Sequence record: MZ779063.1
Reading direction: 5' to 3' (one strand)
Length of the DNA stretch: 64,000 nt
From: Staphylococcus phage vB_SauM-UFV_DC4
The translations under genes and the position numbers were made by a program. The notes beneath the pieces are model-generated. The model was not told the DNA's origin, did not search any database, and was given only the letters and a program-made list of their open reading frames with translations. Below are positions 6,015 to 48,757 of the stretch, one piece after another; the stretch's first letter is position 1, and each line of letters begins with the position of its first letter.

Positions 6015-6030
6015 AAATATATATTATTTT
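6015..6030 (+). promoter_or_regulatory. phage promoter-like box AAATATATATTAT
   Basis: one copy of the recurring AAATATATATTATAAAAATG motif, about 65 nt upstream of the MoxR-like gene. Confidence 0.4.
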
Positions 6031-6095
6031 AATGAGATTGAGATGGAATTAATCTTAATACTCAAAAATAAAAATTTTTAATTACAAGGAGAGAT

Positions 6096-7646
6096 TTGGA
6101 TATGGCAAAAGTAAAATACTCACAAACAAAATTATTGGTAAGAGGAGCATTTAGATCAGATGAAATTATCAACGTAGTTGGTGATGGCGGAATTGGTAAA
6201 ACACAAATGATGAGAGATATTGCAGAAGAAGATAATATGAACTTCATTACTATCGCTGCAAATAACCTTAAAGAAGGGGAATTATCTTTACCAATGTTAT
6301 CACAAAAAGATAATGAAGTTATCTATGCTCCAATGGATAAAATTAAGTTAGCTAATAGTCTTTTTGAGAGATATAAAGAGTATCAAAGAGAAGGCGGAAA
6401 ACAATATTCACGTAAAGACCTTTCTTTAAAATCTGTTGATGAATTAAAAGAAATTTATGTGAAATTGACTGGTAAAGATGTTGTTGATTATTATGAGGAT
6501 ACTCATGAAAACTATGTTAATAAAGTATTTAACAAAGCTAGAGTTAAAAATGTTAAATATAGTAAAAATGATTTAATGAAAAAATCATTTGATGAATTAA
6601 ATGAAATCTTTGTAGAATTAACTGGTAAAGAATTAAGAGATAAAATTGGTAAAGGTTTCTATATCAAAGAAATTTTAGAAGCAGTTCCAAGACCTTATAC
6701 TCTATTATTTATTGACGAAATTGGACGTACAGACCAACAAGTACAATCAGAGTTAATGAACTTCTTATTAGAACGTCAAGTAAATGGTTATCATTTACCA
6801 CCTAACGTTAAGATTGCATTAGCACAAAACCCATCTTCAGACATGCCAGGATTTGAAGACTCAGAATACGCAGCAACTTCTATGGATAACGCAGTAAGTT
6901 CTCGTATTACATTTGTACACATGGTTCCTGATATTGAAAGTTGGGTAGACTTTGCTACTAAATATAAAGATGGTTCAGAAAAGCAAAATATTCATCCATC
7001 TATTGTTGAGTTCGTAACTGAAAAAGAAAGTACTGAATATTTATTTAGACCTCATAAAGAAGCTGGTAAAGACTTCAATGATACTAACCCACGTTCTTGG
7101 GAAATGATTTCTAATATGTTATATGTATTAGAAGAAGATGATTTATTTAAATTCTCTAATAGTGAAGAAGAGAAACGTAAGAAGAAAGATACTTTACAAT
7201 TCTTCACTGAAGGTAAAATTAATAGTGATTTAGCAAACTTATTTGTTAAATTCTATATTGAAAAACAAGCTAAATTACCTCGTCCAAGTGATATTTTATT
7301 TGAATATGATAAAGGTAAAATGGTTCCTCGTAAAGAATTAGCTAAACAACACATTGAAGCTATTGAAAGTCAATCAACTATTAGACAATTAACATTGAAA
7401 ACTTCAATGATTAACTATCTTAAAAATAATCCTGATTTAGCTGAAGAACAAGTTATTCAAATTGCTGTAGAAGCTTTATTATTAGGTAAAGTTGAAACTA
7501 ATGCTACACCAATTAGATTAATTTCTAGACTTTCAGAATCTACTGAAGAGTCAGACCAAGAATTATATGAGAAATTCACTGATAATGAATTATACAGTGA
7601 TAAAGCATTTGCATTATACGAACAAATGGTAGGAAGCTTAGGATAA
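6096..7646 (+). CDS. MoxR-type AAA+ ATPase
   Basis: Walker A GDGGIGKT; Walker B / sensor stretch LLFIDEIGRTDQQVQSELMNFLLERQV parallels the MoxR DEINRAxxxxQSALLEAMQERQV; internal tandem roughly 27-aa duplication at aa 103-181. Confidence 0.7.
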   Translation: MDMAKVKYSQTKLLVRGAFRSDEIINVVGDGGIGKTQMMRDIAEEDNMNFITIAANNLKEGELSLPMLSQKDNEVIYAPMDKIKLANSLFERYKEYQREGGKQYSRKDLSLKSVDELKEIYVKLTGKDVVDYYEDTHENYVNKVFNKARVKNVKYSKNDLMKKSFDELNEIFVELTGKELRDKIGKGFYIKEILEAVPRPYTLLFIDEIGRTDQQVQSELMNFLLERQVNGYHLPPNVKIALAQNPSSDMPGFEDSEYAATSMDNAVSSRITFVHMVPDIESWVDFATKYKDGSEKQNIHPSIVEFVTEKESTEYLFRPHKEAGKDFNDTNPRSWEMISNMLYVLEEDDLFKFSNSEEEKRKKKDTLQFFTEGKINSDLANLFVKFYIEKQAKLPRPSDILFEYDKGKMVPRKELAKQHIEAIESQSTIRQLTLKTSMINYLKNNPDLAEEQVIQIAVEALLLGKVETNATPIRLISRLSESTEESDQELYEKFTDNELYSDKAFALYEQMVGSLG

Positions 7647-7657
7647 CAATTATAGAT

Positions 7658-7700
7658 AATGGAGATTATTAGTCTCCATTATCTTCATTTATTTTTTTAT
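7658..7700 (+). terminator. rho-independent terminator
   Basis: hairpin AATGGAGATTATTAGTCTCCATT followed by a T-run. Confidence 0.5.
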
Positions 7701-7710
7701 AATTAGGAGA

Positions 7711-9656: not shown

Positions 9657-9688
9657 ACGTCAATGGATATTAATTTATCCATTGACGT
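9657..9688 (+). terminator. hairpin terminator
   Basis: inverted repeat ACGTCAATGGATA...TATCCATTGACGT then T-rich. Confidence 0.5.
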
Positions 9689-9725: not shown

Positions 9726-11789
9726 ATGTTAAAAAAGACTACAGAAAATGAATTAGAAAAGTTATTCAATGTCACTATTTATAATGAAGAATTTTCTAAT
9801 TTAAAACCTATGTATAATAGAAAAGATACTGAAACTAGAACTAAATTAAATGACAATCAAAATTCTAGAGTGTATGAGAATTTAATAAATTTCATTAATT
9901 ATTCTAAAGCAGGAATGACACACATGTTTTTAACTCGTTCTAATAAATATAGAGATAAATATATTGATTTTCTAAGAAATAGACTTGGTAAGGAAGATTT
10001 ATTAGATGAGGTTGAATTTGAATATACAGATAGATATTTCAGATCTTTCATATATAATATAGATATAATTAGAAGAAGTGAATATCAAACACATCAATCT
10101 ATAGAAAATGACTCTAAATTAGAAGATTCATTCTTATTAAGAAATGGAAATACAAATATAGATAGCTTTAAAACGGATAATGGTTTATCTATAGAATTTT
10201 TAGATAAAGATGTAAAGAAAGATTTTTTAGATAAGAACAAACAAATTAGTTTAGAATCTTTGCTAGATATCGATACGATGGTGTCTAATTCATTAAGAAA
10301 GAAATGGTTAAAATCAATTGAAAAAGAAGAATTACCTGATATGAATATTATATTTAAAGAAGTTCCAGAAGTAGTAATTATACTAGCAAACAGTATATAT
10401 GAAAGATCAAATTTCAAATTATCATATGTAGATAGAAGTGTTATTAATATACACGCAGACGTTTCAGATGTTTTGGAATCAATACTAACTTTAATTTCTA
10501 ATTTTAATTATAAATTAATATTAGATTTAATAGATGAAGATTACTTAAGTAAAAATTTAAATCATTTCAAAGCTTCTGAATTTTCTTTATCTGACAATAA
10601 TGACATTGATAATATATTTAGTATAATCGGAATTATTAAAAAACAAACGGACGTTATTAATAAATTTATAGAAAAAAGCAAATCAGATAATCTAGAAGAC
10701 AATATTAATTTAATAATTAAAGAAAATGAAATAGATGATGACTTTGGAGAAATATTAAAAGTTTATATTGATAGTGTATTATCTAAATTTAGAGAATATA
10801 TTGAAGATGATACCAATATATTAAAAGATTCATCTAAGGTTTTAATAGGTGAAAATCTATTTGATTTCTTTATGAAATTAGATGATCTCGAAATTTTAAT
10901 GATTAGAAATATATACAGAGTTTTAGATAGTAATGTATATAATCCTGTAATCAGAGATGTTAAAGAATCACAAGAAAAAGTTATGAATGGAATAGTAGAT
11001 TATTTTAAAAATAATACTAAAAAATTATCTTTAGATTTATCTAATATCGATATAAGTAGATTGAAAGATAGTTCTTTCACATTATTAAACGATTTCATAA
11101 CAAATGGAGAAGTAAGTAATCTTCGTATGAAACCTAATGAAGCTAATATGGAGTATTTCTATAAATTAAGTGTGGATAAAGAATTAAACCGTGACATATT
11201 AAATAGTAATATACAATATATGAAACAGGAATTATTAAAAGGTTTTAATGATAATTCTAAAATGACTTCAAATGCTATTATTGAATTTGATAATTTTAAT
11301 ATTAATTTTGCTGTAATAGAAAATAATTCATATAATAATGAAATAGAAATAATGATGCAAGGAGTTACTTTTAAGAAAAAATTAACTGATGAGGATATTG
11401 CTACTATCTTTTTATATTCACATAAAGAAGTTAGTATATATCAAGACAAAAAATTAGTTATCATGGATAGAAATTATTTCTCTAGAAGAGGTATAAATAA
11501 ATTTATAAATAATATGAATAATGTCTTCACTGATTTAGATGGAGAAAGTTTATCTAAATATATGTCTTTAATTTATAATTTATTATCTTTATCAGATAAT
11601 TCTTTTGAGGAAGATAAAGCAATTTATAATACTCTATATTACAATAAATTTGAATATATTAATAAAGAAAATGAGTTAAAAGTTGATAGTTATATTAATA
11701 TGATTAATAATAAAGATGTAACAGATGATTTTAAAAAGAAATTTAAAAAGGTAAGATCTAAGTATTTAGTTTCTAGAATATTTATTTAA
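9726..11789 (+). CDS. hypothetical protein (687 aa)
   Basis: long ORF with AGGAG RBS; no motif recognised. Confidence 0.5.
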   Translation: MLKKTTENELEKLFNVTIYNEEFSNLKPMYNRKDTETRTKLNDNQNSRVYENLINFINYSKAGMTHMFLTRSNKYRDKYIDFLRNRLGKEDLLDEVEFEYTDRYFRSFIYNIDIIRRSEYQTHQSIENDSKLEDSFLLRNGNTNIDSFKTDNGLSIEFLDKDVKKDFLDKNKQISLESLLDIDTMVSNSLRKKWLKSIEKEELPDMNIIFKEVPEVVIILANSIYERSNFKLSYVDRSVINIHADVSDVLESILTLISNFNYKLILDLIDEDYLSKNLNHFKASEFSLSDNNDIDNIFSIIGIIKKQTDVINKFIEKSKSDNLEDNINLIIKENEIDDDFGEILKVYIDSVLSKFREYIEDDTNILKDSSKVLIGENLFDFFMKLDDLEILMIRNIYRVLDSNVYNPVIRDVKESQEKVMNGIVDYFKNNTKKLSLDLSNIDISRLKDSSFTLLNDFITNGEVSNLRMKPNEANMEYFYKLSVDKELNRDILNSNIQYMKQELLKGFNDNSKMTSNAIIEFDNFNINFAVIENNSYNNEIEIMMQGVTFKKKLTDEDIATIFLYSHKEVSIYQDKKLVIMDRNYFSRRGINKFINNMNNVFTDLDGESLSKYMSLIYNLLSLSDNSFEEDKAIYNTLYYNKFEYINKENELKVDSYINMINNKDVTDDFKKKFKKVRSKYLVSRIFI

Positions 11790-11836
11790 ATATATATTAT
11801 ATAATTGAGTTGGTAATTGAACTTATCAACTCAATT
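11788..11836 (+). promoter_or_regulatory. promoter-like box AAATATATATTATATAA followed by hairpin AATTGAGTTG...CAACTCAATT
   Basis: motif plus immediately following perfect inverted repeat; may double as terminator of the upstream gene. Confidence 0.45.
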
Positions 11837-15821: not shown

Positions 15822-15855
15822 ATCCCAATACCTATTACATCAATAGGTATTGGGA
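15822..15855. terminator. conserved hairpin ATCCCAATACCTATT-loop-AATAGGTATTGGGAT (copy 1), bidirectional terminator
   Basis: perfect 15-bp stem between convergent genes; same stem recurs at 29008 and 61164. Confidence 0.55.
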
Positions 15856-15872
15856 TAAATTTAAATTATTTT

Positions 15873-19617: not shown

Positions 19618-19670
19618 GCCATGTTAAGTTTATAGCTTAACATGGCTTTTATATATTTATTTTTTTTTTA
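19618..19670 (+). terminator. rho-independent terminator
   Basis: hairpin GCCATGTTAAG...CTTAACATGGC followed by a long T-run. Confidence 0.6.
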
Positions 19671-19698: not shown

Positions 19699-21210
19699 AT
19701 GAAAATAGATATGATCAACGTTGATCAAATTATTACAGCCTATGAAGCTAAAGAAGTTACCAATCCTATTTTCTTTGATTCAGGAACTTTACCTAAAGAA
19801 GACGGTTTATTCTCATATGAAATATTTGGTTTAATAGGTACTGATGAAAGAAAGAATAATGTGGGTTGGATTAATTTAGGTGGTAAATACTTAAATCCTG
19901 TAGCTTATAAAGCTATGAAAGAATTAGATAAGAATATCGATTTATGTATTCAAGGATCTGATTACTTTAAAATTGAAAAAGGACAATTAGTTCCAGATGA
20001 AAATGGTGAAACTGGATTAAATTTCCTATACGATAATTATGAAAATCTTAAATTTAGAAAAAATGATTCTCGTATCCGAAATGAAAAAATTGATATGCTT
20101 AAAAACACTCCTAAAGATAGAATATTCACAGATAAATGGTTAGTTATTCCTGCTTTCTATCGTGACTTTAACCCTAATGAAACTTCAGGAGAAATTCAAG
20201 ATACTGAAGAAATAAATGATATGTATGCGAGTATTTTAAGATCTGTAGATTCAATTAGTTTTAACTCATTTGATTTTGTAGCTAATACGACTAAATATAA
20301 TATTCAAAATAAATTATTTGAAATATACGTTAAATTAACTTCAGGTGAACTATCAGGTAAAACTGGTATGATGCAAAGAAATATTTTAGGTAAGACAGTA
20401 GATAATAGTACTCGTTCAGTTATTTCATCACCTAAAATCAATTCAAATAAATGGAATGAAATGCAAATTGAATTCGGTCAATTAGGTGTTCCATTAACTC
20501 AATTAGTAACATTGTTCTTACCTTTCTTTAGTAAATATATTATAGACTTTATTGAAATTCATAAAGATGCTTTCCAAACTGCTACTGGAACTGATGAAAA
20601 GGAATTAACATTAGAAGAAGTATATGAACAATTTGATGATAAATCTATTAAGAATATGTTAGAATACTTTATTAAAGACCCTAATGAAAGATTTAGTCCT
20701 ATATATGTAAATGATAGACAAGGTAAACGTCATAAAGTTAAATTATTTGAAAATACTTTAGGTAGAACTTTTACTGTAATTGATTTACTTTATATAGCTG
20801 CTACAGAAATATGTGAAGATAAGTATGTAGTTTATTCAAGATATCCTATTGAAAATTTCTTGAATGTGGCTCCTGCTAAAATTAAAATACTAACTACAGT
20901 TGATACAATTCCAGAAATTACTTTAGATGATATTGTACTTAAAGATTATCCTAAAGTTGTTCATGAATATCCTGTTGATGAAGATGTATTTATAGATACT
21001 GCTATTATACACAACAGTTATGCCGGAGCACTTGGTGCAGATTTTGACGGTGATATGATCTCTATTAGATCTTTATGGACAGTTGAAGCTAATAAAGAAG
21101 CTAATAAACTTCTTAATAAGAAAACTAACTATCTAAACTACACTGGTAATTCAGTACGTAATTTGGGTAACGAATCGGTACAAGCTTTATATTCATTAAC
21201 TAAAGAATAA
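19699..21210 (+). CDS. RNA polymerase beta-prime subunit, N-terminal-half homolog
   Basis: EDGLFSYEIFG matches the beta-prime DGLFCxxIFGP region; GADFDGDM catalytic Mg motif (nt 21040-21054); no Zn-finger cysteines. Confidence 0.7.
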   Translation: MKIDMINVDQIITAYEAKEVTNPIFFDSGTLPKEDGLFSYEIFGLIGTDERKNNVGWINLGGKYLNPVAYKAMKELDKNIDLCIQGSDYFKIEKGQLVPDENGETGLNFLYDNYENLKFRKNDSRIRNEKIDMLKNTPKDRIFTDKWLVIPAFYRDFNPNETSGEIQDTEEINDMYASILRSVDSISFNSFDFVANTTKYNIQNKLFEIYVKLTSGELSGKTGMMQRNILGKTVDNSTRSVISSPKINSNKWNEMQIEFGQLGVPLTQLVTLFLPFFSKYIIDFIEIHKDAFQTATGTDEKELTLEEVYEQFDDKSIKNMLEYFIKDPNERFSPIYVNDRQGKRHKVKLFENTLGRTFTVIDLLYIAATEICEDKYVVYSRYPIENFLNVAPAKIKILTTVDTIPEITLDDIVLKDYPKVVHEYPVDEDVFIDTAIIHNSYAGALGADFDGDMISIRSLWTVEANKEANKLLNKKTNYLNYTGNSVRNLGNESVQALYSLTKE

Positions 21211-21287: not shown

Positions 21288-21330
21288 AAATATATATTAT
21301 AATTATGAAGTTGATAATTATTAATCAACT
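21288..21330 (+). promoter_or_regulatory. promoter-like box AAATATATATTATAA plus 5'-leader hairpin AGTTGAT...ATCAACT
   Basis: motif copy followed by an inverted repeat, then an RBS and ATG at 21356. Confidence 0.45.
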
Positions 21331-21355: not shown

Positions 21356-21655
21356 ATGAATGAAATTAAAATAATGGATACTGAACTACTACAGGAAGCT
21401 GTAGAAGGAAAAGAGAATAACGGTGGAGGTTACGAACATACTCGTACCGTTTTCGAATTCCAAGGAAAACAAGGAGTTTTCGAAGACACTTCTTGTGGTG
21501 ATTTCGGTAGCAGATTCTTCATGGAATGGGATGGAAAAATGGCTATGTGGGGAAGTATGATTGATGAAGAACTCGAATACAGTGAATTCGATGAACAAGA
21601 ACAATCAGAACTTCTAAAGTATTTTAGAGTTCCTGTTTTTGAAGAAACAATCTAG
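21356..21655 (+). CDS. small acidic protein (99 aa); GC and codon usage atypical for this genome
   Basis: E/D-rich; C-ending codons (TTC, AAC, GGT) unlike its neighbours; own promoter box and own terminator. Confidence 0.5.
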   Translation: MNEIKIMDTELLQEAVEGKENNGGGYEHTRTVFEFQGKQGVFEDTSCGDFGSRFFMEWDGKMAMWGSMIDEELEYSEFDEQEQSELLKYFRVPVFEETI

Positions 21656-21715: not shown

Positions 21716-21736
21716 AAATATATATTATAAAAATAG
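21716..21736 (+). promoter_or_regulatory. promoter-like box AAATATATATTATAAAAATAG
   Basis: motif copy upstream of paralog array B. Confidence 0.45.
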
Positions 21737-24373: not shown

Positions 24374-24423
24374 AAATATATATTATAAAAATGAGATAAT
24401 GAATTAATATAATTCATTATCTC
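24374..24423 (+). promoter_or_regulatory. promoter-like box AAATATATATTATAAAAATG plus 5'-leader hairpin GAGATAATGAATT...AATTCATTATCTC
   Basis: perfect 13-bp inverted repeat begins at the G that ends the box. Confidence 0.5.
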
Positions 24424-28985: not shown

Positions 28986-29037
28986 AAATATATATTATAA
29001 AAATGTTATCCCAATACTATTAAATTAGTATTGGGAT
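28986..29037 (+). promoter_or_regulatory. promoter-like box AAATATATATTATAAAAATG plus conserved hairpin ATCCCAATACTATT...AGTATTGGGAT (copy 2)
   Basis: box followed 3 nt later by the CCCAATAC hairpin; upstream of array C. Confidence 0.5.
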
Positions 29038-33880: not shown

Positions 33881-33936
33881 AATTAAAAATTTATAGTAAC
33901 GGAAATATATTTATCAATAGGAGTTGAAACTGGATA

Positions 33937-36672: not shown

Positions 36673-36708
36673 AATCTGTTATTAAAAATTTGAGAGGAGT
36701 AACTCTAT

Positions 36709-36996
36709 TTGATTCTTAATGTTAATAAGACTTTAGATGCTAAATTGGAAAAAGAAATGTATGATGATATTAGAACTGCATTCATTGATAGTACGTTAAC
36801 ACCAATCCGTTATAAAAAATTAGAAGATTTATGTGAAATCCATAATAAAGATATAAAACTTTATTATAACCATGATATGATAGAATCTAAAGAATTAAGA
36901 AAAAGTTTGATTAGATTTTATAAAGAAAATAATTTAGATGAAGACGAATTCATTATAAAGATTAAAAAAGAAGTTATTAAAGATACATTTAAATAG
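36709..36996 (+). CDS. small protein with a C-tail-like ending (...KKEVIKDTFK)
   Basis: 95 aa; TTG start in the track. Confidence 0.45.
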   Translation: MILNVNKTLDAKLEKEMYDDIRTAFIDSTLTPIRYKKLEDLCEIHNKDIKLYYNHDMIESKELRKSLIRFYKENNLDEDEFIIKIKKEVIKDTFK

Positions 36997-37012
36997 AAAA
37001 GGACGGTTTTAT

Positions 37013-37165
37013 ATGGATAAAAAGAAATTATGGATATTGACAGGTATAACTTTTTTAACATCTCTCACAGTAAATTTCATTATTTTATATTATAAAGATA
37101 AATATAAAATGGATGATATTGATACAGCAGAAGATCCATTTATGAAAGGTCCATTATTTATATAA
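37013..37165 (+). CDS. small single-pass membrane protein (50 aa)
   Basis: GGACGG RBS-like sequence; hydrophobic stretch WILTGITFLTSLTVNFIILYY; not in the ORF track (below its length cutoff). Confidence 0.35.
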   Translation: MDKKKLWILTGITFLTSLTVNFIILYYKDKYKMDDIDTAEDPFMKGPLFI

Positions 37166-37174
37166 TTTAAATAT

Positions 37175-37216
37175 TGCCAAACATTCTTTAAATAGAGTGT
37201 TTGGCATTTTATATTT
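37175..37216 (+). terminator. rho-independent terminator
   Basis: TGCCAAACA...TGTTTGGCA hairpin followed by TTTTATATTTT. Confidence 0.6.
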
Positions 37217-37288
37217 TAATTTTTTATGAAATCTAAGTAACGATTAAATTATCAAAGTAGCAATTGAATTGAGGAGTGTTCAAAGATA

Positions 37289-39010
37289 ATGGGTAGATTT
37301 ATTAAATCAACATATTTAAATAAAAAAGAGACACATTCAGGAAAAGAAAAAGTAGTAATGGTAGTTAAAGAAGAAGACGGTAATAAAAAACATATGGAAA
37401 TAACTGATCCAATGATGCATTATTATGTAACTAAAGATGAACATTGGTTACCACCTAATAAAATTGTAGGTTCTATTGAAAAAGATAAAGTAAGAACTGT
37501 TACTTGTAAGCATAAAGATATTATCAAATCAGTAGTTAAAGAAGCTGGTAATGCTCAAGATAAAGCAGAATATGATAGAATTATGAAATCAGGTAATTGG
37601 CAAGAATATAGAAAATTAAAAGATTTTCATTTATTAAATAATGCTCATGGATCTGATATTAATATAGAAGATTATAATATTAATGAGTATATTAAAAAGA
37701 ATTTAGATAGTAAAGTCGGTATAGATATATGTCTATTCGATATTGAGGTTGATGGTTCTCAAGTAACAGGCTTCCCAGATCCTGAAAAAGCTGAAGCAGA
37801 GATAAATATTATAACTGTAGTGGATTGGAGTAAGAAAAAAGTATTAACATTCGCTCTTAAATATGACACTGATACTTATAGAGAAACTATGAAAGATCAA
37901 GATAAGTTAATTAAAGACTTAAATGAAATCTATAATAATGAAAATAGTGAAATTGGTAAAGATTTAGGTTTAGAATTTGAAATATATGAATTAGATACAG
38001 AAATGCAAGTAATTAAATCTTTCTTATACTATATTAATGAAATTAGTAAACCTGATATATGTACAGCATGGAATCTAGATTATGACTTCCCTGCAATATT
38101 TGAACGTATTAGAGCTAATGGAGAAGATCCTGCAGATTATTTCTGTTCTAAAGAATTTGAAGATAAAAAAGCATATTATAAATTAGATAAAAATGCTACT
38201 GATATGGCTAATAGATCTTCTACATTTGAGACTAATTCTTATACTAACTGGATTGACCAATTAGCTTTATATGCAAATATTAATAAACCTAATGGTGCTT
38301 TGGAATCAGTTAAGTTAAATGATATTGGAGAAAAAGAAGCGAGAGTTACTAAAGATGTTTATGAAGGTTCTATCTCTGATTTACATTTTAGAGATTATTA
38401 CACATTTATACTTTATAATATTAAAGATACTGTATTAGCTGCATTAATTGAACATAACACTAATATGTTTGATTTATTATTCTCTATTGTAGATATGACT
38501 AGAACAAGACCTAGTAAAGCACTTAAGAAAACTATTTGTTTAAGAAATCGTAGTTCAGTATTCTTTGAAAATCAAGGATATGTATTAAGTAATAACCACT
38601 CAAAATTATTATCAGATCCGAATGCAGATAAAATTCGTGGTGGATTTGTAGCAGATATGATGTTAATTGAACGTAATGGTGATACATTAGTTAAAGGTAG
38701 AGATATTAGATCTAATAGATTATTTAGTAATGTTTGTGACTTTGACTTGAGTGCTCTATACCCATCTATTATTAGAGCATATAATATAACACCTGAAGGA
38801 CATGTGGGTAAAATGAATATTCTTGATAAAGATAGAATAACAGTGCCTAAGTATGAGGAAGATAAAGATAACTATGATTTTAATACTGAATTCGTAAGTA
38901 AGTTTAACAGTCAAGATAGTGTTGCTTTTGCTCAAGAATTTCATGGTTTACCTCCTCTTATTAAAGCATCTGATGACATTATTAAAGAATTAGAGGAGGA
39001 AATTGGTTAA
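37289..39010 (+). CDS. family-B DNA polymerase, N-terminal part (3'-5' exonuclease plus motif A)
   Basis: Exo I LFDIEVDG; Exo II WNLDYDFPAIFER; Exo III YNIKDTVL; pol motif A DFDLSALYPSII (nt 38738-38773); ORF ends about 80 aa later, before motif B. Confidence 0.75.
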   Translation: MGRFIKSTYLNKKETHSGKEKVVMVVKEEDGNKKHMEITDPMMHYYVTKDEHWLPPNKIVGSIEKDKVRTVTCKHKDIIKSVVKEAGNAQDKAEYDRIMKSGNWQEYRKLKDFHLLNNAHGSDINIEDYNINEYIKKNLDSKVGIDICLFDIEVDGSQVTGFPDPEKAEAEINIITVVDWSKKKVLTFALKYDTDTYRETMKDQDKLIKDLNEIYNNENSEIGKDLGLEFEIYELDTEMQVIKSFLYYINEISKPDICTAWNLDYDFPAIFERIRANGEDPADYFCSKEFEDKKAYYKLDKNATDMANRSSTFETNSYTNWIDQLALYANINKPNGALESVKLNDIGEKEARVTKDVYEGSISDLHFRDYYTFILYNIKDTVLAALIEHNTNMFDLLFSIVDMTRTRPSKALKKTICLRNRSSVFFENQGYVLSNNHSKLLSDPNADKIRGGFVADMMLIERNGDTLVKGRDIRSNRLFSNVCDFDLSALYPSIIRAYNITPEGHVGKMNILDKDRITVPKYEEDKDNYDFNTEFVSKFNSQDSVAFAQEFHGLPPLIKASDDIIKELEEEIG

Positions 39011-39792
39011 TGTCTATTATTATTGAAGAATCAAAAATAGTAAATAAATTAGTAATGACTTTTGAAGAAATATCTAAGCTATTCAATAATATTGTTGATG
39101 GAAGTAAGTATATTAGTTTAAATAAAAATATTATAACAAATCATTCTAAGTCAGATGATAATCCTAATTCAGTTGAAGTGGAAATTATAGAAGATAATCC
39201 AATTTACGATTATCTTCTACCTATTGAAAATTGTGTTTTTAGTGTAGAAGACTTTATTGAAGTAAGAAAGAATAAGGGAGATAAAATTGTTAAAGTTGAA
39301 TTTTTCAATGAAATCGATAATAGTGGTATTAAAATAACTAGAGAATCTGATTTAGAAACTACTATTAATGGTGATGAGTTTGATGAAGATTTATTAGATG
39401 AAGAATTAAATTATTCATTGGATGCTATTAATTATTTTAGTTCTTTTGAACCAAGTCTAAATTTCAAATTAGATAATGATAGTTTATTGGAAATTAAGGA
39501 AAGAAAACCTTCTGAGTTCTTTAAGTTTATATTTACTGAAGATGATGTTATTGTTAAAGATCCTTATTATATTTATAATGAAGAAGACTACCTTATTGAT
39601 TTTAGAACTTCTAAAAAGTATTTATTAGGATTAAAATATAAAAAGACTAAAGGAGAAACAGTTTGTCCATTAGTTAAAATAGATGTATACGCCCCAGAAA
39701 CAACTGTATATAGTGAATTGATTATGATAAAATTTTCAATTTACCAAGACAAATTTGTTGCAAAATTGAAGAATTTAGTTTATAATATATAA
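39010..39792 (+). CDS. hypothetical protein (260 aa), translationally coupled to the DNAP N-terminal gene
   Basis: ATGA-type overlap with the upstream stop; no motif. Confidence 0.5.
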   Translation: MSIIIEESKIVNKLVMTFEEISKLFNNIVDGSKYISLNKNIITNHSKSDDNPNSVEVEIIEDNPIYDYLLPIENCVFSVEDFIEVRKNKGDKIVKVEFFNEIDNSGIKITRESDLETTINGDEFDEDLLDEELNYSLDAINYFSSFEPSLNFKLDNDSLLEIKERKPSEFFKFIFTEDDVIVKDPYYIYNEEDYLIDFRTSKKYLLGLKYKKTKGETVCPLVKIDVYAPETTVYSELIMIKFSIYQDKFVAKLKNLVYNI

Positions 39793-39835
39793 TGTGAAAA
39801 AATACTTATAAATTAAGAGAAAATTCTAAAAAGTA

Positions 39836-42298
39836 TTGAAAAGGAGTGTTTTGAATTTGGCTGATGAGAATAAAACTCAGAGAAGTATAAATAATCTCAA
39901 CAGAGATATGGTCAGAGGATTAGGCGATGAAGAAAATCCTAAGAACTTATCTGACAATATAAATGATTTTGATGATAGACTAAAAAAGATAAGACGTAAA
40001 AGTAATCATGGTAATAGTAATGGTGATATTCTATCTTTAGCATCTAAAGTAAACGGTAAAAGTAGAAATGTTAGAAAATCTAATACCGGTGATGATAAAA
40101 AAGATTTCATTAAAGATTTTATAGAAGAGAATATTGAAAATCAAGATTTTTCATCTGAAATTGCTAGAGTATCTAGATACGATGACTATAGAATTATAGA
40201 TAAATTTATACCTGAAATATCAACAAGTATTGATGTATTCGCTACTTCTATTATTGCACCTGATGATACTTCTAAATTATCATTGATGTATCGTTATGGT
40301 GATACAAATAATAAAGATGAATCAGAAAATAAAGAAGTTTTAAATGAATTAGATAGAATTGTAAAGAAATATAATTTGGACAATTTGACATATACTTCTA
40401 TTCGTGATGGTTTATTATTAGGTGATGTATTCTATATTATTAAAGATACTAAGTCTGATTTTGAAGAAATACTTAATGAAAATGATGACGTATTAGGAAG
40501 AGAAACACGAGATGAACAAAAAGTAATTAATGAATCATTTATTGACCAGAATCTTAAAGAATCTGATTTAGACACTATAATTAATGAATTTAATAATCAA
40601 TTTGAAAAGCCTATTAAAGATGAAGATCAATTAAATGAACAGAGAACTAATTTTAAAAATGAAATATTAAAGAGTATTAATGAGAATGTAGCTTTCTTTG
40701 AAAATTCTTCTGAATTACTCTCTGATATAGGTAAATACAAAGGTTCTAATGACTTACAATCATTTTTAAATAAAGCAGATAACAAAAATAAATCTAGTAA
40801 ATTAAAATCTGGTTCAGTTTATTTTAGATCCGTAGAACCCGAAGACATGATTAAATTAGAAATTGATGGTATGTGTATTGGTTATCTTTATATTGAACCT
40901 GATTCTGGAACTGATTTAAGAGGAGGAGCTAATCCTTTATTATCTGCTATGAATAATTTAATGGGAGATGGATACCAGAAGCAAGGTCAAACAGGATCAC
41001 CTTCAGGTGGTATGGGAATTACTAACTTAGATCCTGTTACTGGTGGCGTTGCAGGAAATAATATGTCTAGTAATTCTAAAAATCCTAATTCAGGAATGAA
41101 TGCTACATCTGGATCATATTATGAAAATGGAAATACTGTTATGGCATATCAAGGTTTAGTTGATGTTATAGTTAAAGGTATATCTCAAAAGATTAATATG
41201 GACTTCATTAATAAAAATGATTCATTTAAAGATATCATATATAGATTAATCCGTAAGAATTATATTATTGAAAATGGTATTAAAATGACTTTCTTAGAAG
41301 CTGATGAAGTGTTTCATCATAAATTAGACAGTCAAAAAACTTATGGAGTTTCTAAACTTAATAAATCATTATTCTTTGCTAAATTATATTTAAGTACTTT
41401 AATAACTACAATGATGGTTAAATTAAATCAATCAAGAGATAGACGTGTATTTAGAGTTAATGCAGGTTTAGATGATGATTATGAAGGAACTGTAGAAGAA
41501 ATAATTCGTAATGTGAGACAAAACGAAATGTCTACAGGATTATTTGGTGACGGAACTTCAGTTCAAACATTATTCAATCAAGTAGGTAACTTAGAAAACA
41601 TGTACATTCCTCAAAATAAAGAAGGTACTTCACCTTTAGAAATAGATACAATCTCTGGTATTCAAGTTGATATTAATGATGAGTTCTTAGAATGGCTTAA
41701 GAAATCAGTTATATCAGGTACAGGAGTTCCTTTAAACTATATTGATGCTGAAACTGAAACTGATTACGCACGTTCATTATCAATGCAGAATAATAACTTT
41801 GTCAGACGTGTAGTTAATTATCAAAAATCTTTCGGTGAATTTTATACTGAAGTATTAAGAAAACTTTATTATTTAGAAAATGTAAGTAAAAATAAAAAAG
41901 AAAATGAAGAATTAAGTAATAGAATACAAGAAATTGAAGCATACTTCCCAGCACCAGTATTCTTAAACTTAGGAAACCTTAATGAAGAAGTTGGAGCCGT
42001 TACGCAAATGATAGACTTCTTAGTTCCTTTATATACTTCAGAAGCTTCTGGTGACGAAGAAGAAGATGATAACGAAAAACTAAAACGTCTATTCCGTAAA
42101 GAATTAGTTCAACAAGAATTCATGTCTAATTTAGATTACGATAGATATGAAGATATTATTAACAATATTAAAGATGAAATAAATAAAGATAAAAGAAAAA
42201 ATGACATGGTAAATAATAATAATACTGATGAAGACGATTTATCTTCTTCAGATGACTCTGAAAATAATTCAAGCGATAATTTTGAGGATGATTTCTAA
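39836..42298 (+). CDS. candidate highly divergent RNAP beta-subunit C-terminal-like protein
   Basis: weak but co-linear resemblance to the beta C-terminal motifs: ...ENMYIPQNKEGTSPLEIDTISG vs ...MPYDENGTPVDIVLNP, and YARSLS...(16)...QKSFGEFYTEVL vs HARSTG...(14)...GQRFGEMEVWAL; lies next to the beta-prime C-terminal gene. Confidence 0.35.
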   Translation: MKRSVLNLADENKTQRSINNLNRDMVRGLGDEENPKNLSDNINDFDDRLKKIRRKSNHGNSNGDILSLASKVNGKSRNVRKSNTGDDKKDFIKDFIEENIENQDFSSEIARVSRYDDYRIIDKFIPEISTSIDVFATSIIAPDDTSKLSLMYRYGDTNNKDESENKEVLNELDRIVKKYNLDNLTYTSIRDGLLLGDVFYIIKDTKSDFEEILNENDDVLGRETRDEQKVINESFIDQNLKESDLDTIINEFNNQFEKPIKDEDQLNEQRTNFKNEILKSINENVAFFENSSELLSDIGKYKGSNDLQSFLNKADNKNKSSKLKSGSVYFRSVEPEDMIKLEIDGMCIGYLYIEPDSGTDLRGGANPLLSAMNNLMGDGYQKQGQTGSPSGGMGITNLDPVTGGVAGNNMSSNSKNPNSGMNATSGSYYENGNTVMAYQGLVDVIVKGISQKINMDFINKNDSFKDIIYRLIRKNYIIENGIKMTFLEADEVFHHKLDSQKTYGVSKLNKSLFFAKLYLSTLITTMMVKLNQSRDRRVFRVNAGLDDDYEGTVEEIIRNVRQNEMSTGLFGDGTSVQTLFNQVGNLENMYIPQNKEGTSPLEIDTISGIQVDINDEFLEWLKKSVISGTGVPLNYIDAETETDYARSLSMQNNNFVRRVVNYQKSFGEFYTEVLRKLYYLENVSKNKKENEELSNRIQEIEAYFPAPVFLNLGNLNEEVGAVTQMIDFLVPLYTSEASGDEEEDDNEKLKRLFRKELVQQEFMSNLDYDRYEDIINNIKDEINKDKRKNDMVNNNNTDEDDLSSSDDSENNSSDNFEDDF

Positions 42299-42309
42299 TA
42301 TTGACATTT

Positions 42310-42359
42310 GAATAACGGATTAAATACAATTCGTTATTCAAATTTATATTATATAAGTG
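42310..42359 (+). promoter_or_regulatory. terminator hairpin GAATAACGGATT...AATTCGTTATTC followed by the variant box AAATTTATATTATATAAGTG
   Basis: perfect inverted repeat, then a TATATTAT-containing box upstream of the beta-prime C-terminal gene. Confidence 0.45.
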
Positions 42360-42398
42360 TAGTACAGAATATTTATTTATAAGGAGAATGAATTAGAT

Positions 42399-44312
42399 AT
42401 GACAAATGAAGAAATTGTTTTAGATTTAAAATTAGGTAAGTATAATGATTATTTACACTCAGATAATTATTTTGAAATTTTAGAAGATTTAAAGAAAGAT
42501 ATTATTAGTAATCCTCAAAAAAGAATGGAAGACTATTTTGAAGACAATATATCTAAAAGTAATTATTTCACTTTATTAGTATTAGGTAAACCTTTTAGAG
42601 ATATGAATAAAGAGTTTACGGAAGAATACTTAGTTAATCCAACTGATATTGAAGATTATTATGATTATTTTGACAAAGTTGTTGTTAATTTTATTCATGA
42701 AGGACATGACCCAATAAAAGTTAGTCAATCTATTGCATTTATTATTGATGAATTAACTATATTTTCAAATGAATATATTTTACCTTTAGATGGACCATCT
42801 ATTTCATTATACGATATTATGAGATTGGCTAATGAAGATAAAGAAGTAGAAAAATTAATTAACTTTGATAAAGAAGATATTGACCCTAGCTTAAACTATC
42901 AGCAAATTATCAATGAAGTTCAAAAACCTAATATGCATAAATTAATTGATCGTATTAAATCTGATAAAGAAAATGATTATAAAACTTTCTTACATTCAGG
43001 AACAGGTATTAATAAGATACAATTGAATGAGGTTTTAAGTTTCGTAGGATACAAACCAGATATTCGTGGCGATGTTGTAACTGATATTATTGATACCTCA
43101 TTCATGCGTGGTTTAAAAGATACAACACAATTTGCTATTGATGCAGAATCTTCATTAAACGCATTAATGAACTCTAAGAATAAAGTACGTGAATCAGGAT
43201 ACTTAAACCGTAAAATTACTTTATTAACTTCAGATTTAAAATTATCAGAAAATGAAGATTGTGAAAGTAAACATTTTGTTTACGTTAATATGAATAGTCA
43301 AGATAAATTAGATAGATTTAATGATAGATTCTATTATGATGATACAGATCAAGAATTAAAATTAATTAATTCTAAAGAAGATAGTCATTTAATAGGACAG
43401 ATTGTTCCATTACGTTCTCCTATCACATGTGCTGAATCTAAAGGAAAAATATGCCAAACTTGTTACGGTAAACGTTTATATAACATTAATAGAAACTTAT
43501 CTGTAGGTATATTGGCTACATTAAGATTAACAGAACCTATGACTCAAAAATTATTATCAACAAAACACTTACAAGCAGTACAATTATCTGAATTCTCTTG
43601 GCCAGATATCTTTAAAGAACACTTTGAATTCTCTGGAGATAATATTGTTCCACGTAATGAAAAGACTAAAGTTATTATTGATGAAATGATTATTAATGAA
43701 GATTATGAATATGGAAGATATAAAGCTAACAGTTTTAAATTTAAAGTAGGTACTAAAACTCATACTGTTAAATCACCTGTAACTCTTAAAATACCAGATC
43801 AAAATATTGAGACTATGGATAAGTTTTATGATGAAGAAGAAAATGCATTTATATTCAGTATGAAAGACTTAAAAGAGAATTTCTTATTTAATATTAAAAT
43901 TAAAAATGAAGGTGTTGCTGACCCACTTCTTAAAATACGTTCTATATTAGAAAGTACTAAATACATTAGAAATGATTATGAAGAAAATAACTATCAAGCA
44001 ATGTTTAATGATGTAACAGATTTATTACTTAAATCAGGTACAGACGTTATGAGTGTTCATTTAGAAACTATTATTAGAAACATGGTATTCTTAAATGAAG
44101 ATTATAAAGAAAGAACTAAATATAGAGATCCTGAATTTGAACCTGATATTGAATTGAAAAATGTAGGTAGTGCTATTTTAAGTTCACCTTCGCCAGTACA
44201 ATCATTAATCTTTGAGAAGATTAAAGCACAATTAAGTACTGATGAAACTAATAACTTCTTCAGTAAAGATGGAGACTCAATGTTCGATCCGTTATTTGAT
44301 TTTGATATTTAA
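42399..44312 (+). CDS. RNA polymerase beta-prime subunit, C-terminal-half homolog
   Basis: CQTCYGKRLY...GILATLRLTEPMTQ matches the beta-prime C-terminal Zn-site / region G CxxCYGxDL...GxIAAQSIGEPGTQ (nt 43452-43475). Confidence 0.65.
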   Translation: MTNEEIVLDLKLGKYNDYLHSDNYFEILEDLKKDIISNPQKRMEDYFEDNISKSNYFTLLVLGKPFRDMNKEFTEEYLVNPTDIEDYYDYFDKVVVNFIHEGHDPIKVSQSIAFIIDELTIFSNEYILPLDGPSISLYDIMRLANEDKEVEKLINFDKEDIDPSLNYQQIINEVQKPNMHKLIDRIKSDKENDYKTFLHSGTGINKIQLNEVLSFVGYKPDIRGDVVTDIIDTSFMRGLKDTTQFAIDAESSLNALMNSKNKVRESGYLNRKITLLTSDLKLSENEDCESKHFVYVNMNSQDKLDRFNDRFYYDDTDQELKLINSKEDSHLIGQIVPLRSPITCAESKGKICQTCYGKRLYNINRNLSVGILATLRLTEPMTQKLLSTKHLQAVQLSEFSWPDIFKEHFEFSGDNIVPRNEKTKVIIDEMIINEDYEYGRYKANSFKFKVGTKTHTVKSPVTLKIPDQNIETMDKFYDEEENAFIFSMKDLKENFLFNIKIKNEGVADPLLKIRSILESTKYIRNDYEENNYQAMFNDVTDLLLKSGTDVMSVHLETIIRNMVFLNEDYKERTKYRDPEFEPDIELKNVGSAILSSPSPVQSLIFEKIKAQLSTDETNNFFSKDGDSMFDPLFDFDI

Positions 44313-44386
44313 AACAATATAATTCAACCAAACTTCTATTAACTTAGGAGTTTGGTTATATATAATAACTCTAGGAGGAATTTAAT

Positions 44387-44677
44387 ATGGAAAATGTACC
44401 AGAATATAGTTTATTAGGGATATATAATTTTAATTATGATAAAGAGAAATTAATAATGTCTATAATAAAAAATTGTCATATTGTCTTTAACACTATTAAT
44501 GAGGATGGAGAAAGAGATATTTATTTATTATCTGATTTAGAAATTAGTGAGGATGGTATATTTTCTTTTGTATTAACTAAAGATGATTTACCGGTATCAG
44601 TTCATAATTTTTCAATTAAAGAGGTATATGATTTTGATGAACTTAATAAATTGATAATGAAAGAAATTAATTCTTAA
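44387..44677 (+). CDS. hypothetical protein (96 aa)
   Basis: AGGAGG RBS. Confidence 0.45.
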   Translation: MENVPEYSLLGIYNFNYDKEKLIMSIIKNCHIVFNTINEDGERDIYLLSDLEISEDGIFSFVLTKDDLPVSVHNFSIKEVYDFDELNKLIMKEINS

Positions 44678-44744
44678 AAAATTAATTTTTTATAATAACT
44701 GATAGATATAAAATTTTAAAGCAAAAAGGAGAATTTAATTTAAC

Positions 44745-45191
44745 ATGGAAATTTTCAAATTAAAAGAATTAGAAGGTAAACAAGAACAAACAATCGAATT
44801 AACTGGTGATGATAAAAACCTTAAAGAAATTAGAGAAGCATTCTTTAATAGTCAATCAGGTACTTATATGGTAAATAAAACTATCAATGATAATATTGAA
44901 GAATTCTTCAAACATGCTGAAGATGATGTAACTGTAGATGATGTTTATAAACTTAATGTAATTGTTGAAGATGATAAACAAATTACTTTAGTTAAAGCTG
45001 AAAAAGATGATCAATTTAAGAAAGGTTGTTTCTACATGGTATTTGACTTAATGGGTTCTGTACCTGTTTATACTGATTTAGAAAATCCTGAAGCTACATT
45101 TGATTTATCCGGTATGTTTAAAGAAAATGGTTTTGATTTCTTTAAAACTATTGCAGAAGTATTCCCTACTACTATTGAGCTTAAACAATAA
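44745..45191 (+). CDS. hypothetical acidic protein (148 aa)
   Basis: AAGGAG RBS. Confidence 0.45.
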   Translation: MEIFKLKELEGKQEQTIELTGDDKNLKEIREAFFNSQSGTYMVNKTINDNIEEFFKHAEDDVTVDDVYKLNVIVEDDKQITLVKAEKDDQFKKGCFYMVFDLMGSVPVYTDLENPEATFDLSGMFKENGFDFFKTIAEVFPTTIELKQ

Positions 45192-46776: not shown

Positions 46777-47487
46777 GTGTCCATTATATCTCGTGGAGAG
46801 GCTATTGATAATTATCAATACCTCAATGAATTATTTATAAGTTTTAGAAAAGAAATTAATGAATTTTTATTTAGTGAGATATTTAAAATTAATCATACTG
46901 ATTTTAAAAACTCTATTATAGGTAGTGTTAATTCAGAATTTAAAGTTAAGGAAGAAAAAGATTCAATATGCTTATTATTAGAAGATAAATTTATTGAATT
47001 CGACCTTTATGAAGGATTTATTATCCTTTACAACTTTAAAGAGAATATTAGTTTAATGAAAGAAAAAATTGATATCCAAAAATCTATAATAGAAAATAAA
47101 TTAGATACTAGATATAATTCTAATAATAAACTTAAAAATAAGAATAAAAAGCTTAATAATGAAATAACTGAAAAGAATAATGAACTTAATGAAAGAATTA
47201 AATTAGGTGTTTTAACTAATGCATTACTAAATATGTTAAGAATGCCCAATTCATTTAAATTAAAAGAAGAAATAGATGAACTTAATAAAAGTATTGAGAA
47301 AAATAATCTAATTATAGAGAATAATGATAGTAATATAAAATTATTAGAAGAAGATAAGAAAGATATTAGTAAATATGATTTTAGGTTTGCTAATGATAAA
47401 TATCTATTCAATAAGATTAGTGAGTTTGTACAGTACTTTAAAAATGAATATGGTTTTGAATTTTATATTAAAAATGATACTATATAA
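46777..47487 (+). CDS. coiled-coil protein (236 aa)
   Basis: N/K/E-rich helical. Confidence 0.45.
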   Translation: MSIISRGEAIDNYQYLNELFISFRKEINEFLFSEIFKINHTDFKNSIIGSVNSEFKVKEEKDSICLLLEDKFIEFDLYEGFIILYNFKENISLMKEKIDIQKSIIENKLDTRYNSNNKLKNKNKKLNNEITEKNNELNERIKLGVLTNALLNMLRMPNSFKLKEEIDELNKSIEKNNLIIENNDSNIKLLEEDKKDISKYDFRFANDKYLFNKISEFVQYFKNEYGFEFYIKNDTI

Positions 47488-47498
47488 GGAGTAAATAT

Positions 47499-48131
47499 AT
47501 GAATACAGAACTAAGCAAATTAAGTTTAGAAGAGTTGAGTGATTTAAAAGAAGAAGTCAATAGATTTTTTAATAACGATTTATTTAAATTTCCTAATGCA
47601 GGAATCACATCTAATTTATCTTTACCTGCAAAGTATTATAATCTTTTATTAGTTAATATTATAGAAGACAGTAAACTAAAATTTACTTTATACGGTATCG
47701 ATATGATTATTTTTGATTTAGATACATTAGAAGTATCAATGAGCGATAAATATGAACACAATATGGGTTTAGCTGAAGAAACTCTAATTTCTAATTATGA
47801 AGGATTTACTGAAAAAGACAAATTTTTAGATTCTATAGAAGATGAGAAAAATATACTAAAAGATAAATTTATATTTGAAAATAATATTAGTTCTATTAAT
47901 AAAGAAATAGAAAATATTGAATCATTATTTGGTATCAAGTTTAAATTTATCGAAGATTTTGATGGTTATAAATTAGAAAGAAATCAAGATAATGAAGATA
48001 CAGAAGAAACTGAAAAAGAAAATATAATTGAAGATAATAAAATTGCTAAAGAAAGTAATGAACATGAAATTACACATAGTAAAAAAGATTCTTTAATTAA
48101 AAGAATAATTAAGAGAGTGGTGAAATTTTAA
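47499..48131 (+). CDS. hypothetical protein (210 aa)
   Basis: ORF with RBS. Confidence 0.45.
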   Translation: MNTELSKLSLEELSDLKEEVNRFFNNDLFKFPNAGITSNLSLPAKYYNLLLVNIIEDSKLKFTLYGIDMIIFDLDTLEVSMSDKYEHNMGLAEETLISNYEGFTEKDKFLDSIEDEKNILKDKFIFENNISSINKEIENIESLFGIKFKFIEDFDGYKLERNQDNEDTEETEKENIIEDNKIAKESNEHEITHSKKDSLIKRIIKRVVKF

Positions 48132-48731
48132 ATGACTGAAGAAAAATTACCTGCATTAAATATTATTGCTTCTGCAGTAACTACTACACCTAAGACTAAT
48201 ACAGAATTTATTAATATGACATTTATGGTAGATAACCCTAAATTTAAAGATATGTATTTAGAATTTTCTGATATTGATTTATCAGAAGTATTTAAAAACG
48301 AAATGCTTAAAGAAGCTTATGAAAACGGTCAATTAGCAGAATATACTAAAATTGATCAGACTTTAGATAATTATAATATTAGAATGATTAAAGATGATAC
48401 AGTTATACAAATACAACGTATTAGAGATTACTTTGAAGAATTATCTGAATATGCTGATAAATTAATATTCTGGGTTGATGAGATTACTTTATGGTCTCAG
48501 TTAATAGAATTAGTTTATGGAGGTTCATCAGATAACACATATGAATTACCTTCATATATTGACTTCCAACCTATTGACATAAAATCAGTAGTTAGAATGT
48601 CAGCTATAAGAGATAATGATTATTCATATGCAGAAGAATTAATGGGAACAAGTGAATCACTAACAGATTCATCTTTATCAATTTCATCATTCTTATTAAC
48701 ATTCATTAAAAATGCTGGAATATTAAAATAA
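48132..48731 (+). CDS. hypothetical protein (199 aa)
   Basis: start overlaps the upstream stop (TAAATG). Confidence 0.45.
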   Translation: MTEEKLPALNIIASAVTTTPKTNTEFINMTFMVDNPKFKDMYLEFSDIDLSEVFKNEMLKEAYENGQLAEYTKIDQTLDNYNIRMIKDDTVIQIQRIRDYFEELSEYADKLIFWVDEITLWSQLIELVYGGSSDNTYELPSYIDFQPIDIKSVVRMSAIRDNDYSYAEELMGTSESLTDSSLSISSFLLTFIKNAGILK

Positions 48732-48737
48732 ATTTTT

Positions 48738-48757
48738 AAATATATATTATAAAGATG
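48738..48757 (+). promoter_or_regulatory. promoter-like box AAATATATATTATAAAGATG
   Basis: motif copy about 45 nt upstream of the SSB-like gene. Confidence 0.45.

Follow-up and report, generated by a model that had tools for sequence, protein, structure and literature searches.

The early promoters closest to the element described here are those of phage AR9, where 41 promoters with the consensus AAATATATATTAT-(6N)-G(+1) were mapped by differential RNA sequencing (dRNA-seq) and primer extension (Lavysh et al. 2017, PMC5312081). They are active 5 min post infection and also under chloramphenicol, and because of this early activity without protein synthesis they were attributed to the injected virion RNA polymerase (RNAP) (PMC5312081). 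A MEME analysis of phage MarsHill detected this motif ahead of 29 genes (Korn et al., bioRxiv 10.1101/2020.12.14.422802). Here we describe the copies of this box in a stretch of 64,000 nucleotides (nt) from Staphylococcus phage vB_SauM-UFV_DC4 (MZ779063.1; the whole stretch is referred to as the window), most of which are followed by an inverted repeat that would fold into a stem-loop at the predicted 5′ end of the transcript. The window is 98.4% identical to the Staphylococcus jumbo phage S6 over the 10 kb tested, and shows 85–97% identity to the phages PALS_2, Madawaska, MarsHill, PB50, LY01, Machias, AH12 and SA1. The window phage is, like AR9, a member of the AR9/PBS1 group of phages with two split multisubunit RNA polymerases, one virion and one non-virion enzyme.

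Transcripts from the T7 phi10 (class III) promoter, in the gene 10 leader, begin with a stem-loop reported to raise mRNA stability. As in the window, a phage polymerase promoter is there directly followed by a 5′-terminal transcript hairpin, but the T7 case involves a single-subunit RNAP, late genes, one leader and a Gram-negative host with RNase E rather than RNase J. In Bacillus, mRNAs are stabilised by hairpins at or near the 5′ end or by 5′-proximal ribosome-binding sites, and RppH requires at least two, and preferably at least three, unpaired 5′ nt (PMC3997798). The described 5′ stabilisers (E. coli ompA, the B. subtilis aprE leader, ermC and SP82; PMC3997798) resemble the window promoters in having a stem-loop near the 5′ end and upstream of the ribosome-binding site, with a 5′-proximal Shine-Dalgarno (SD) sequence as the alternative where the hairpin is absent. 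They differ in being single genes with measured effects on half-life, whereas here the element is carried by a whole promoter class of one phage clade.

Early promoters of the AR9 type in the window

A preliminary description of the window had listed eight plus strand copies of a 20 nt box, all in gaps ahead of plus strand genes, and had proposed an early or middle promoter class for the phage-encoded RNAP. We searched both strands of the window with this 20-mer, allowing up to three mismatches, and obtained nine matches where dinucleotide shuffles predicted 0.94, with none of 100 shuffles reaching nine. All eight plus strand copies were recovered, each of them intergenic (between plus strand open reading frames (ORFs) or in a divergent gap) and upstream of a plus strand gene. 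Seven carry an exact copy of the 13-mer AAATATATATTAT, starting at 6015, 11788, 21288, 21716, 24374, 28986 and 48738, and the copy at 42340 (AAATTTATATTAT) has a single mismatch to it. A G is found six nt past the 13-mer in 7/8 copies, while the remaining one (P4) has an A and then a G. The SD sequences lie 25–65 nt 3′ of the predicted start. The promoters are as follows:

6015..6034, plus strand: P1 early promoter, exact 13-mer at 6015–6027, spacer TTTAAT, predicted +1 at G 6034; in a divergent gap, with an AAA-ATPase gene downstream and a minus strand gene for the baseplate wedge upstream
11788..11807, plus strand: P2 early promoter, exact 13-mer at 11788–11800 overlapping the stop codon of the upstream ORF, spacer ATAATT, predicted +1 at G 11807
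21288..21307, plus strand: P3 early promoter, exact 13-mer, predicted +1 at G 21307
21716..21736, plus strand: P4 early promoter, exact 13-mer, A at box position 20 and G at 21736
24374..24393, plus strand: P5 early promoter, exact 13-mer, predicted +1 at G 24393; the box begins 12 nt past the upstream stop codon and lies ahead of a tandem paralogue array
28986..29005, plus strand: P6 early promoter, exact 13-mer, predicted +1 at G 29005; the box begins 4 nt past the upstream stop codon
42340..42359, plus strand: P7 early promoter, one mismatch, predicted +1 at G 42359, SD at +25
48738..48757, plus strand: P8 early promoter, exact 13-mer, predicted +1 at G 48757

The window box matches the AR9 early consensus letter for letter, and the final G of the 20-mer is therefore the predicted +1. 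The likeness to the AR9/PBS1 early promoters extends beyond the identical 13-mer, 6 nt spacer and G start to their placement, which is intergenic and facing non-structural genes. Furthermore, P7 precedes the gene for the non-virion RNAP β′ subunit, and AR9 likewise has an early promoter before the homologous gene g154. By this identity to the AR9 consensus the window boxes are predicted to be early promoters recognised by the packaged, injected multisubunit virion RNAP, with start sites in this phage that would follow from homology to the AR9 mapping. The proposal of a phage RNAP promoter class is thus borne out, the class being the early one; it is an already known class, since it was mapped in AR9 and predicted in the relative MarsHill. 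The search of the whole window also bore out that no box precedes the minus strand structural block.

Comparison of 30 copies from the S6 genome showed conservation from a nearly invariant T at −20 to a G at +4, covering at least 21 positions, with a start that reads G-A-R-G. The T at −1 is invariant in S6 (30/30), whereas this position varies in AR9.

It could be argued that the boxes are chance AT-rich words, or −10 elements of the host sigma-A factor (TATTAT-N6-G) read by the host RNAP, as the genome has about 25% G+C, TATTAT is close to TATAAT and the distance to the G fits that between −10 and +1. Matches to the 13-mer with two mismatches were indeed scattered over both strands, as expected for DNA of this composition. 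However, the nine matches against 0.94 expected, the exclusive location of exact copies on the plus strand and in intergenic regions, and the conservation of at least 21 positions including the invariant T at −1 all argue against this explanation, as does the ascription of early transcription in AR9 to the virion RNAP, independent of protein synthesis. A scan for sigma-70-like sites in a third of the window (25001–45000) gave 195 sites with 186 ± 13 expected, a chance level that does not speak for host promoters. On the counts, strand and placement of the boxes, an origin by chance was rejected, and we regard both accidental words and a reading by the host RNAP as negligible in probability.

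The ninth match, at 62881–62900 on the minus strand (AAATATCTATTAT-N6-G), has one mismatch in the 13-mer and lies inside the ORF for an RNAP β subunit. It is conserved in S6 at 107219 (minus strand), and has neither a hairpin nor an SD sequence. Since, according to the AR9 data, one mismatch can be enough to abolish activity, this copy is probably inactive.

A stem-loop at the predicted transcription start

We folded the +1 to +50 region of each window promoter, with +1 set at the final G of the box, and calculated z-scores against dinucleotide shuffles. Folding energies ranged from −6.3 to −16.9 kcal/mol, with z-scores from −1.9 to −4.9, and a 5′ stem-loop was present at 6/8 promoters, starting at +1, +3 or +4. 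The inverted repeats previously noted behind the boxes at 11788, 21288, 24374 and 28986 were confirmed; their stems comprise 10, 7, 14 and 12 bp and begin at +1, +3, +1 and +4, respectively. Two further hairpins were found at 6015 and 48738, both from +1. Folding of +1 to +50 showed no 5′ hairpin at 21716 (P4) or 42340 (P7). Under the AR9 start rule these positions support the suggestion that the transcripts would begin with a stem-loop. The stem-loops are:

6034..6063, plus strand: P1 stem-loop (hairpin A), +1 to +30, 11 bp with one bulge and one G·U pair, −8.5 kcal/mol
11807..11832, plus strand: P2 stem-loop, +1 to +26, 10 bp, −9.7 kcal/mol
21309..21330, plus strand: P3 stem-loop, +3 to +24, 7 bp, −5.3 kcal/mol
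24393..24423, plus strand: P5 stem-loop, +1 to +31, 14 bp perfect, −14.1 kcal/mol
29008..29037, plus strand: P6 stem-loop (hairpin F), +4 to +33, 12 bp, −16.4 kcal/mol
48757..48783, plus strand: P8 stem-loop (hairpin H), +1 to +27, 12 bp including G·U pairs, −5.9 kcal/mol

We assembled the whole S6 genome and repeated the promoter and hairpin analysis there. Among the 25 S6 promoters followed by an SD sequence and an ORF, 18 have a 5′-proximal hairpin, with the stem starting at +1 (12 promoters), +3 (5) or +4 (1), thus leaving 0, 2 or 3 unpaired 5′ nt. These hairpins are 16–31 nt long and are separated from the SD sequence by a constant gap of 11–23 nt, formed by an A/T-rich linker. Several of the S6 promoters that lack a hairpin have their SD sequence at +4, +5, +18 or +25.

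A folding profile with a sliding window of 32 nt had a sharp minimum exactly at offset 0, both in S6 (−8.0 kcal/mol, n = 39) and in the window (−8.4 kcal/mol, n = 8), with energies of about −1 kcal/mol ten bases to either side of +1. A first stem finder (at least 9 pairs, G·U allowed) gave 963 stems and was replaced by a genome-wide energy scan, because it was too permissive in DNA of 25% G+C. The energy scan identified 746 hairpin clusters of −8 kcal/mol or lower on both strands of S6, and 21/39 promoter starts carry such a cluster where about 0.7 would be expected. Extension of the pairing upstream of +1 was 0, 1, 2 and 4 nt in 5, 5, 1 and 1 of the S6 stems, respectively, which is not beyond chance. 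The systematic presence of a stem-loop at +1 is statistically solid.

Distribution of the stem-loop among related phages

The AR9 genome has the same promoters, but its folding profile is flat at +1 (−1.1 kcal/mol), and of 21 leaders only three have a nearby hairpin, none of which starts from +1. The AR9 leaders are short and unstructured, and the median distance of their SD sequence from +1 is about 16 nt, whereas the S6-like phages have a stem-loop of about 16–31 nt inserted at +1. In 50-kb samples of BpSp (Bacillus) and LPJP1 (Listeria), the nearest outgroups found, the box was present without +1 hairpins. Such hairpins are common in S6, the window phage, SA1, MarsHill and LY01, and among the sampled phages the +1 stem-loop is specific to the Staphylococcus clade. 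A term search found no mention of hairpins or stem-loops in the AR9 paper (PMC5312081) or in two Staphylococcus jumbo phage genome papers, that of MarsHill included, and the stem-loop thus appears to be unreported in this clade.

An additional early promoter is present near the DNA polymerase genes in four relatives, but not in the window or S6, at the following positions:

14841 in MarsHill (L133): extra promoter near the DNA polymerase genes
17077 in LY01 (L136, reverse complement): extra promoter near the DNA polymerase genes
14285 in Machias (L134): extra promoter near the DNA polymerase genes
19792 in SA1 (L132): extra promoter near the DNA polymerase genes

Its hairpin is strong and starts from +5 or +6 in MarsHill, LY01 and SA1, and is weak in Machias. 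The promoter precedes a gene of about 435 amino acids (aa) in MarsHill, LY01 and Machias, and a different gene in SA1. Promoter-hairpin units are therefore gained and lost together with gene insertions.

An exact-pattern scan for the box in IMG/VR returned 120 loci, and as most of these were single and probably chance matches in AT-rich viruses, the scan is not usable as a sample of relatives. In some uncultured contigs (23–43% G+C), the same box directly follows a stop codon:

1342, 7526 and 9231 in contig L068: box sites
1957 in contig L039: box site
3576 in contig L002: box site
8718 in contig L001, minus strand: box site
6828 in contig L105, minus strand: box site

A T-tract usually follows the +1 hairpin in these contigs, and the stem of about half of them includes the N6 spacer in its pairing; the promoter thus forms part of a terminator's 5′ arm, unlike in the S6 clade.

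RNA structure and selection

We compared orthologous promoters in SA1, MarsHill, Machias, PB50 and LY01, and found the stems to be retained. The hairpins comprise about 15 different, unrelated stem sequences with loops of 3–9 nt, so that there is no site common to them for a protein. Four changes in the orthologs affect both sides of a pair: AU to UA in hairpin A, CG to UA in hairpin F of SA1, and two AU/UA exchanges in hairpin H of SA1. Hairpin A is conserved in seven phages, which in addition to the compensatory change show two UA to UG changes, and all one-sided stem changes in the orthologs (5/5) yield G·U pairs. At P5 the stem is retained in the orthologs, with a variable loop and inner stem. 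Other promoters have non-homologous hairpins in the same position in a relative: SA1 has a non-homologous +1 hairpin at the P2 site and, at the P3 site, a different one that likewise starts from +3, and the S6 promoter at 237192 and its SA1 counterpart at 78414 form another such pair. The hairpins at 221363 in S6 and 62071 in SA1 occupy the same position with multiple compensated differences, while at the P2 site of Machias and PB50 a non-homologous hairpin is found at about +12. In S6, 12 hairpins fold more stably as the sense than as the antisense strand and 2 show the opposite, owing to nine G·U pairs; this speaks for a structure of the sense RNA rather than for a symmetric element in DNA. 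We therefore infer that the hairpin acts as RNA.

A precedent for an action in DNA is found in phage N4, whose early promoters contain an inverted repeat too and are likewise served by an injected virion polymerase. In N4 the hairpin is located upstream of +1, has conserved features and is recognised as DNA, and the enzyme is of the single-subunit type, whereas the repeat in the window is located downstream of +1 and differs in sequence between promoters, and relatives do without it. By analogy, the sigma-less virion RNAP could be helped to melt or escape the promoter by a cruciform or a hairpin of single-stranded DNA: the repeat adjoins the start at most promoters, and DNA hairpins are known to be used by the N4 virion RNAP (PMC4496689). 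We consider this very unlikely, as the identical box works in AR9 without the repeat and also lacks it in BpSp and LPJP1, and two of the eight window promoters (P4 and P7) have no repeat, including the promoter of the non-virion RNAP gene. Moreover, each G·U pair would be an A·C mismatch on the other strand, the sense fold is favoured in 12 cases versus 2, the one-sided changes in orthologs all lead to G·U, and neither stem nor loop sequences are conserved between promoters. An N4-like DNA hairpin promoter was thus rejected on the downstream position of the repeat, its variability, the G·U asymmetry and its absence in relatives with the same box.

The nut sites of lambda and the put sites of HK022 sit near operon starts, and a location at the very start of early operons would also suit a recognition signal in the nascent RNA, be it for antitermination of the nut or put type, for RNase III or for tagging by a phage protein; processing had also been proposed in the preliminary description. 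We give this little credence, since the loops and stems differ between promoters without any common sequence, and no Rfam family matches the hairpins. For lack of a shared loop or stem sequence, a nut/put-like or protein-binding signal was rejected. Typical RNase III substrates are longer than the stems of 7–14 bp found here, and an RNase III site is considered unlikely.

A probable stabiliser of early mRNA or a possible 3′ end of the upstream cistron

We consider it probable that the box and hairpin together represent an early promoter of the virion RNAP coupled to a 5′-terminal stem-loop, which would have a stabilising function for the early mRNA. In the mechanism that we propose, the virion RNAP would start at the G six bases past the 13-mer, and the first 16–31 nt transcribed would usually fold to leave 0, 2 or 3 unpaired 5′ nt. 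Such a closed 5′ end may hinder both the removal of pyrophosphate by an RppH-type enzyme and the entry of the 5′ exonuclease RNase J1/J2, and with 5′-dependent decay hindered, early mRNAs would persist in the Gram-positive host. Stems that start at +1 or +3 fit the requirement of RppH for unpaired nt, and several hairpin-less leaders have a nearby SD sequence, which together led us to take the hairpin as a 5′ stabiliser.

Several observations weigh against this interpretation. A literature search found no transcriptome or 5′-end mapping of any Staphylococcus jumbo phage, and the hairpin is kept at only 3–4 of the eight orthologous promoters in Machias and PB50. The hosts of AR9, BpSp and LPJP1 have similar RNases, yet these phages lack the hairpins, which can thus not be a general requirement. 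The covariation for each hairpin rests on 3–4 distinct sequences, and shuffle controls are not significant alone, so that the argument depends on the pooled events and the positional signal. Further points are that strong +1 hairpins in S6 are mostly found where there is no separate upstream hairpin or terminator, and that two hairpin families, GAGGTAATGACA and ATCCCAATAC, are reused at gene ends. The first, of the form GAGGTAA(T/C)G...C(A/G)TTACCTC, is found at a convergent gene end (3646–3675) and in the separate strong hairpin upstream of P3 (21223–21253), and in S6 (L129–L130) at +1 of four promoters as well as in two promoter-less gaps. The second (ATCCCAATAC...GTATTGGGAT) occurs at a convergent gene end (15822–15856) and at +4 of P6 (29008–29037). 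Both families look like a dispersed intergenic palindrome family.

These last points bear at the same time on the possibility that the hairpins are mainly terminators or 3′-protecting stem-loops of the upstream cistron, with the transcript start at the stem being a by-product of compaction. A co-directional gene precedes the box in 5/6 window promoters with a hairpin, and in four of them it ends 0–12 nt before the box or overlaps it with no other hairpin between, while P3 has its own upstream hairpin. The Machias record labels the ortholog of the P6 hairpin as a terminator, and a T-tract follows the +1 hairpin in the IMG/VR contigs described above, where about half of the stems reach into the N6 spacer. 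The likeness to intrinsic terminators thus consists in stem-loops located in intergenic gaps, and in some stem sequences that are also used at gene ends here.

The +1 hairpins differ from intrinsic terminators in lacking a U-tract, in being present also where no gene ends, and in starting exactly at the predicted +1. Divergent promoters without a co-directional upstream gene carry them at P1, where the hairpin is conserved in seven phages with a compensatory change, and at 118577, 141611 and 44422 in S6. None of the 18 S6 +1 hairpins has T at five or more of the 8 nt past the stem, the stems stop at +1, and in the scanned region (25001–45000) no window +1 hairpin was flagged as a plus strand terminator. 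A true terminator past +1 would also halt the transcripts that begin there. At P4 and P7, where termination is evidently wanted, the order is terminator and then promoter: a T-tract terminator hairpin lies upstream of P4, and the terminator upstream of P7 overlaps the start of its box. AR9, furthermore, has no hairpin at equivalent tight junctions. We therefore view a mainly 3′-end function as possible, although rather unlikely.

In gaps that lack a +1 hairpin, and of which all except two are also promoter-less, G+C-richer hairpins are present, most of them followed by long T-tracts as in classic intrinsic terminators:

7654–7684: hairpin in a gap without a +1 hairpin
9657–9688: hairpin in a gap without a +1 hairpin
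19618–19646: hairpin in a gap without a +1 hairpin
about 21650–21671: hairpin in a gap without a +1 hairpin, upstream of P4
37175–37206: hairpin in a gap without a +1 hairpin
42306–42343: hairpin in a gap without a +1 hairpin, upstream of P7
50063–50104: hairpin in a gap without a +1 hairpin

The stabiliser function may be combined with a second one: at junctions where the box closely follows the end of a co-directional gene, the hairpin may double as a protective 3′ end of read-through RNA, and such a dual role as 5′ shield and 3′ stem is plausible. We are more doubtful that the stem-loop goes beyond a passive stabiliser and forms a clade-specific identity mark of early mRNAs, which would let them survive shutoff and decay or would be read by a phage factor. 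The closed 5′ end might then spare early messages from a host-shutoff or phage-induced 5′-dependent decay that clears host mRNA, or alternatively the virion polymerase or a phage factor might read the hairpin, for instance to resist termination or to aid escape on uracil-DNA. In addition, the preceding cistron would have its 3′ end capped by this module, and a single hairpin could thereby insulate both neighbours.

Gene context of the promoters

The RNAP genes in the window are the following:

19699–21210: virion RNAP β′ gene, assigned by synteny
42399–44312: non-virion RNAP β′ gene, downstream of P7
62429–63943, minus strand: RNAP β subunit gene

The operons after P5 (24456–27536) and P6 (29063–33880) are tandem arrays of weakly similar paralogues of about 190–290 aa with 24–36% identity, and in the region 21815–23516 the ORFs at 21815–22297 and 23025–23516 are 66% identical to each other. 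The minus strand block at 51–64 kb codes for an Ig-domain structural protein, two endolysins, a tail fibre, a virion protein and the RNAP β subunit. Within the ORF for the Ig-domain structural protein, ARAGORN called a 94 nt tRNA-Phe (anticodon AAA) at 52143–52236 on the minus strand, which is probably a false positive, judged on its length, anticodon and AT-rich coding context.

The late promoter motif of AR9, AACA-N6-TA, was detected 45–85 nt upstream of 6/11 minus strand genes, with about 1.7 estimated by chance. The genes concerned are:

start codon ending at 5917, minus strand: gene with upstream AACA-N6-TA
start codon ending at 53288, minus strand: gene with upstream AACA-N6-TA
start codon ending at 54158, minus strand: gene with upstream AACA-N6-TA
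start codon ending at 55274, minus strand: gene with upstream AACA-N6-TA
start codon ending at 61085, minus strand: gene with upstream AACA-N6-TA
start codon ending at 62332, minus strand: gene with upstream AACA-N6-TA

These occurrences suggest that the promoter rule of the non-virion RNAP is also common to the window phage and AR9.

Implications for early transcription in Staphylococcus jumbo phages

The promoters extend the AR9 early promoter rule to another S6-like phage, as predicted for MarsHill, and are nothing new in themselves. Combined with the hairpin, the box marks the 5′ ends of early operons for annotation, where a terminator label has been given to at least one such hairpin, and offers a compact promoter-leader module for the engineering of these therapeutic-candidate phages. 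The Staphylococcus clade with +1 stem-loops and the sampled Bacillus and Listeria phages without them, which share the same promoter, form a natural comparison that is useful for work on mRNA stability, termination and polymerase escape. The hairpin provides a testable handle on a step that has received little study, namely how a polymerase-carrying jumbo phage secures its first messages in a Gram-positive cell.

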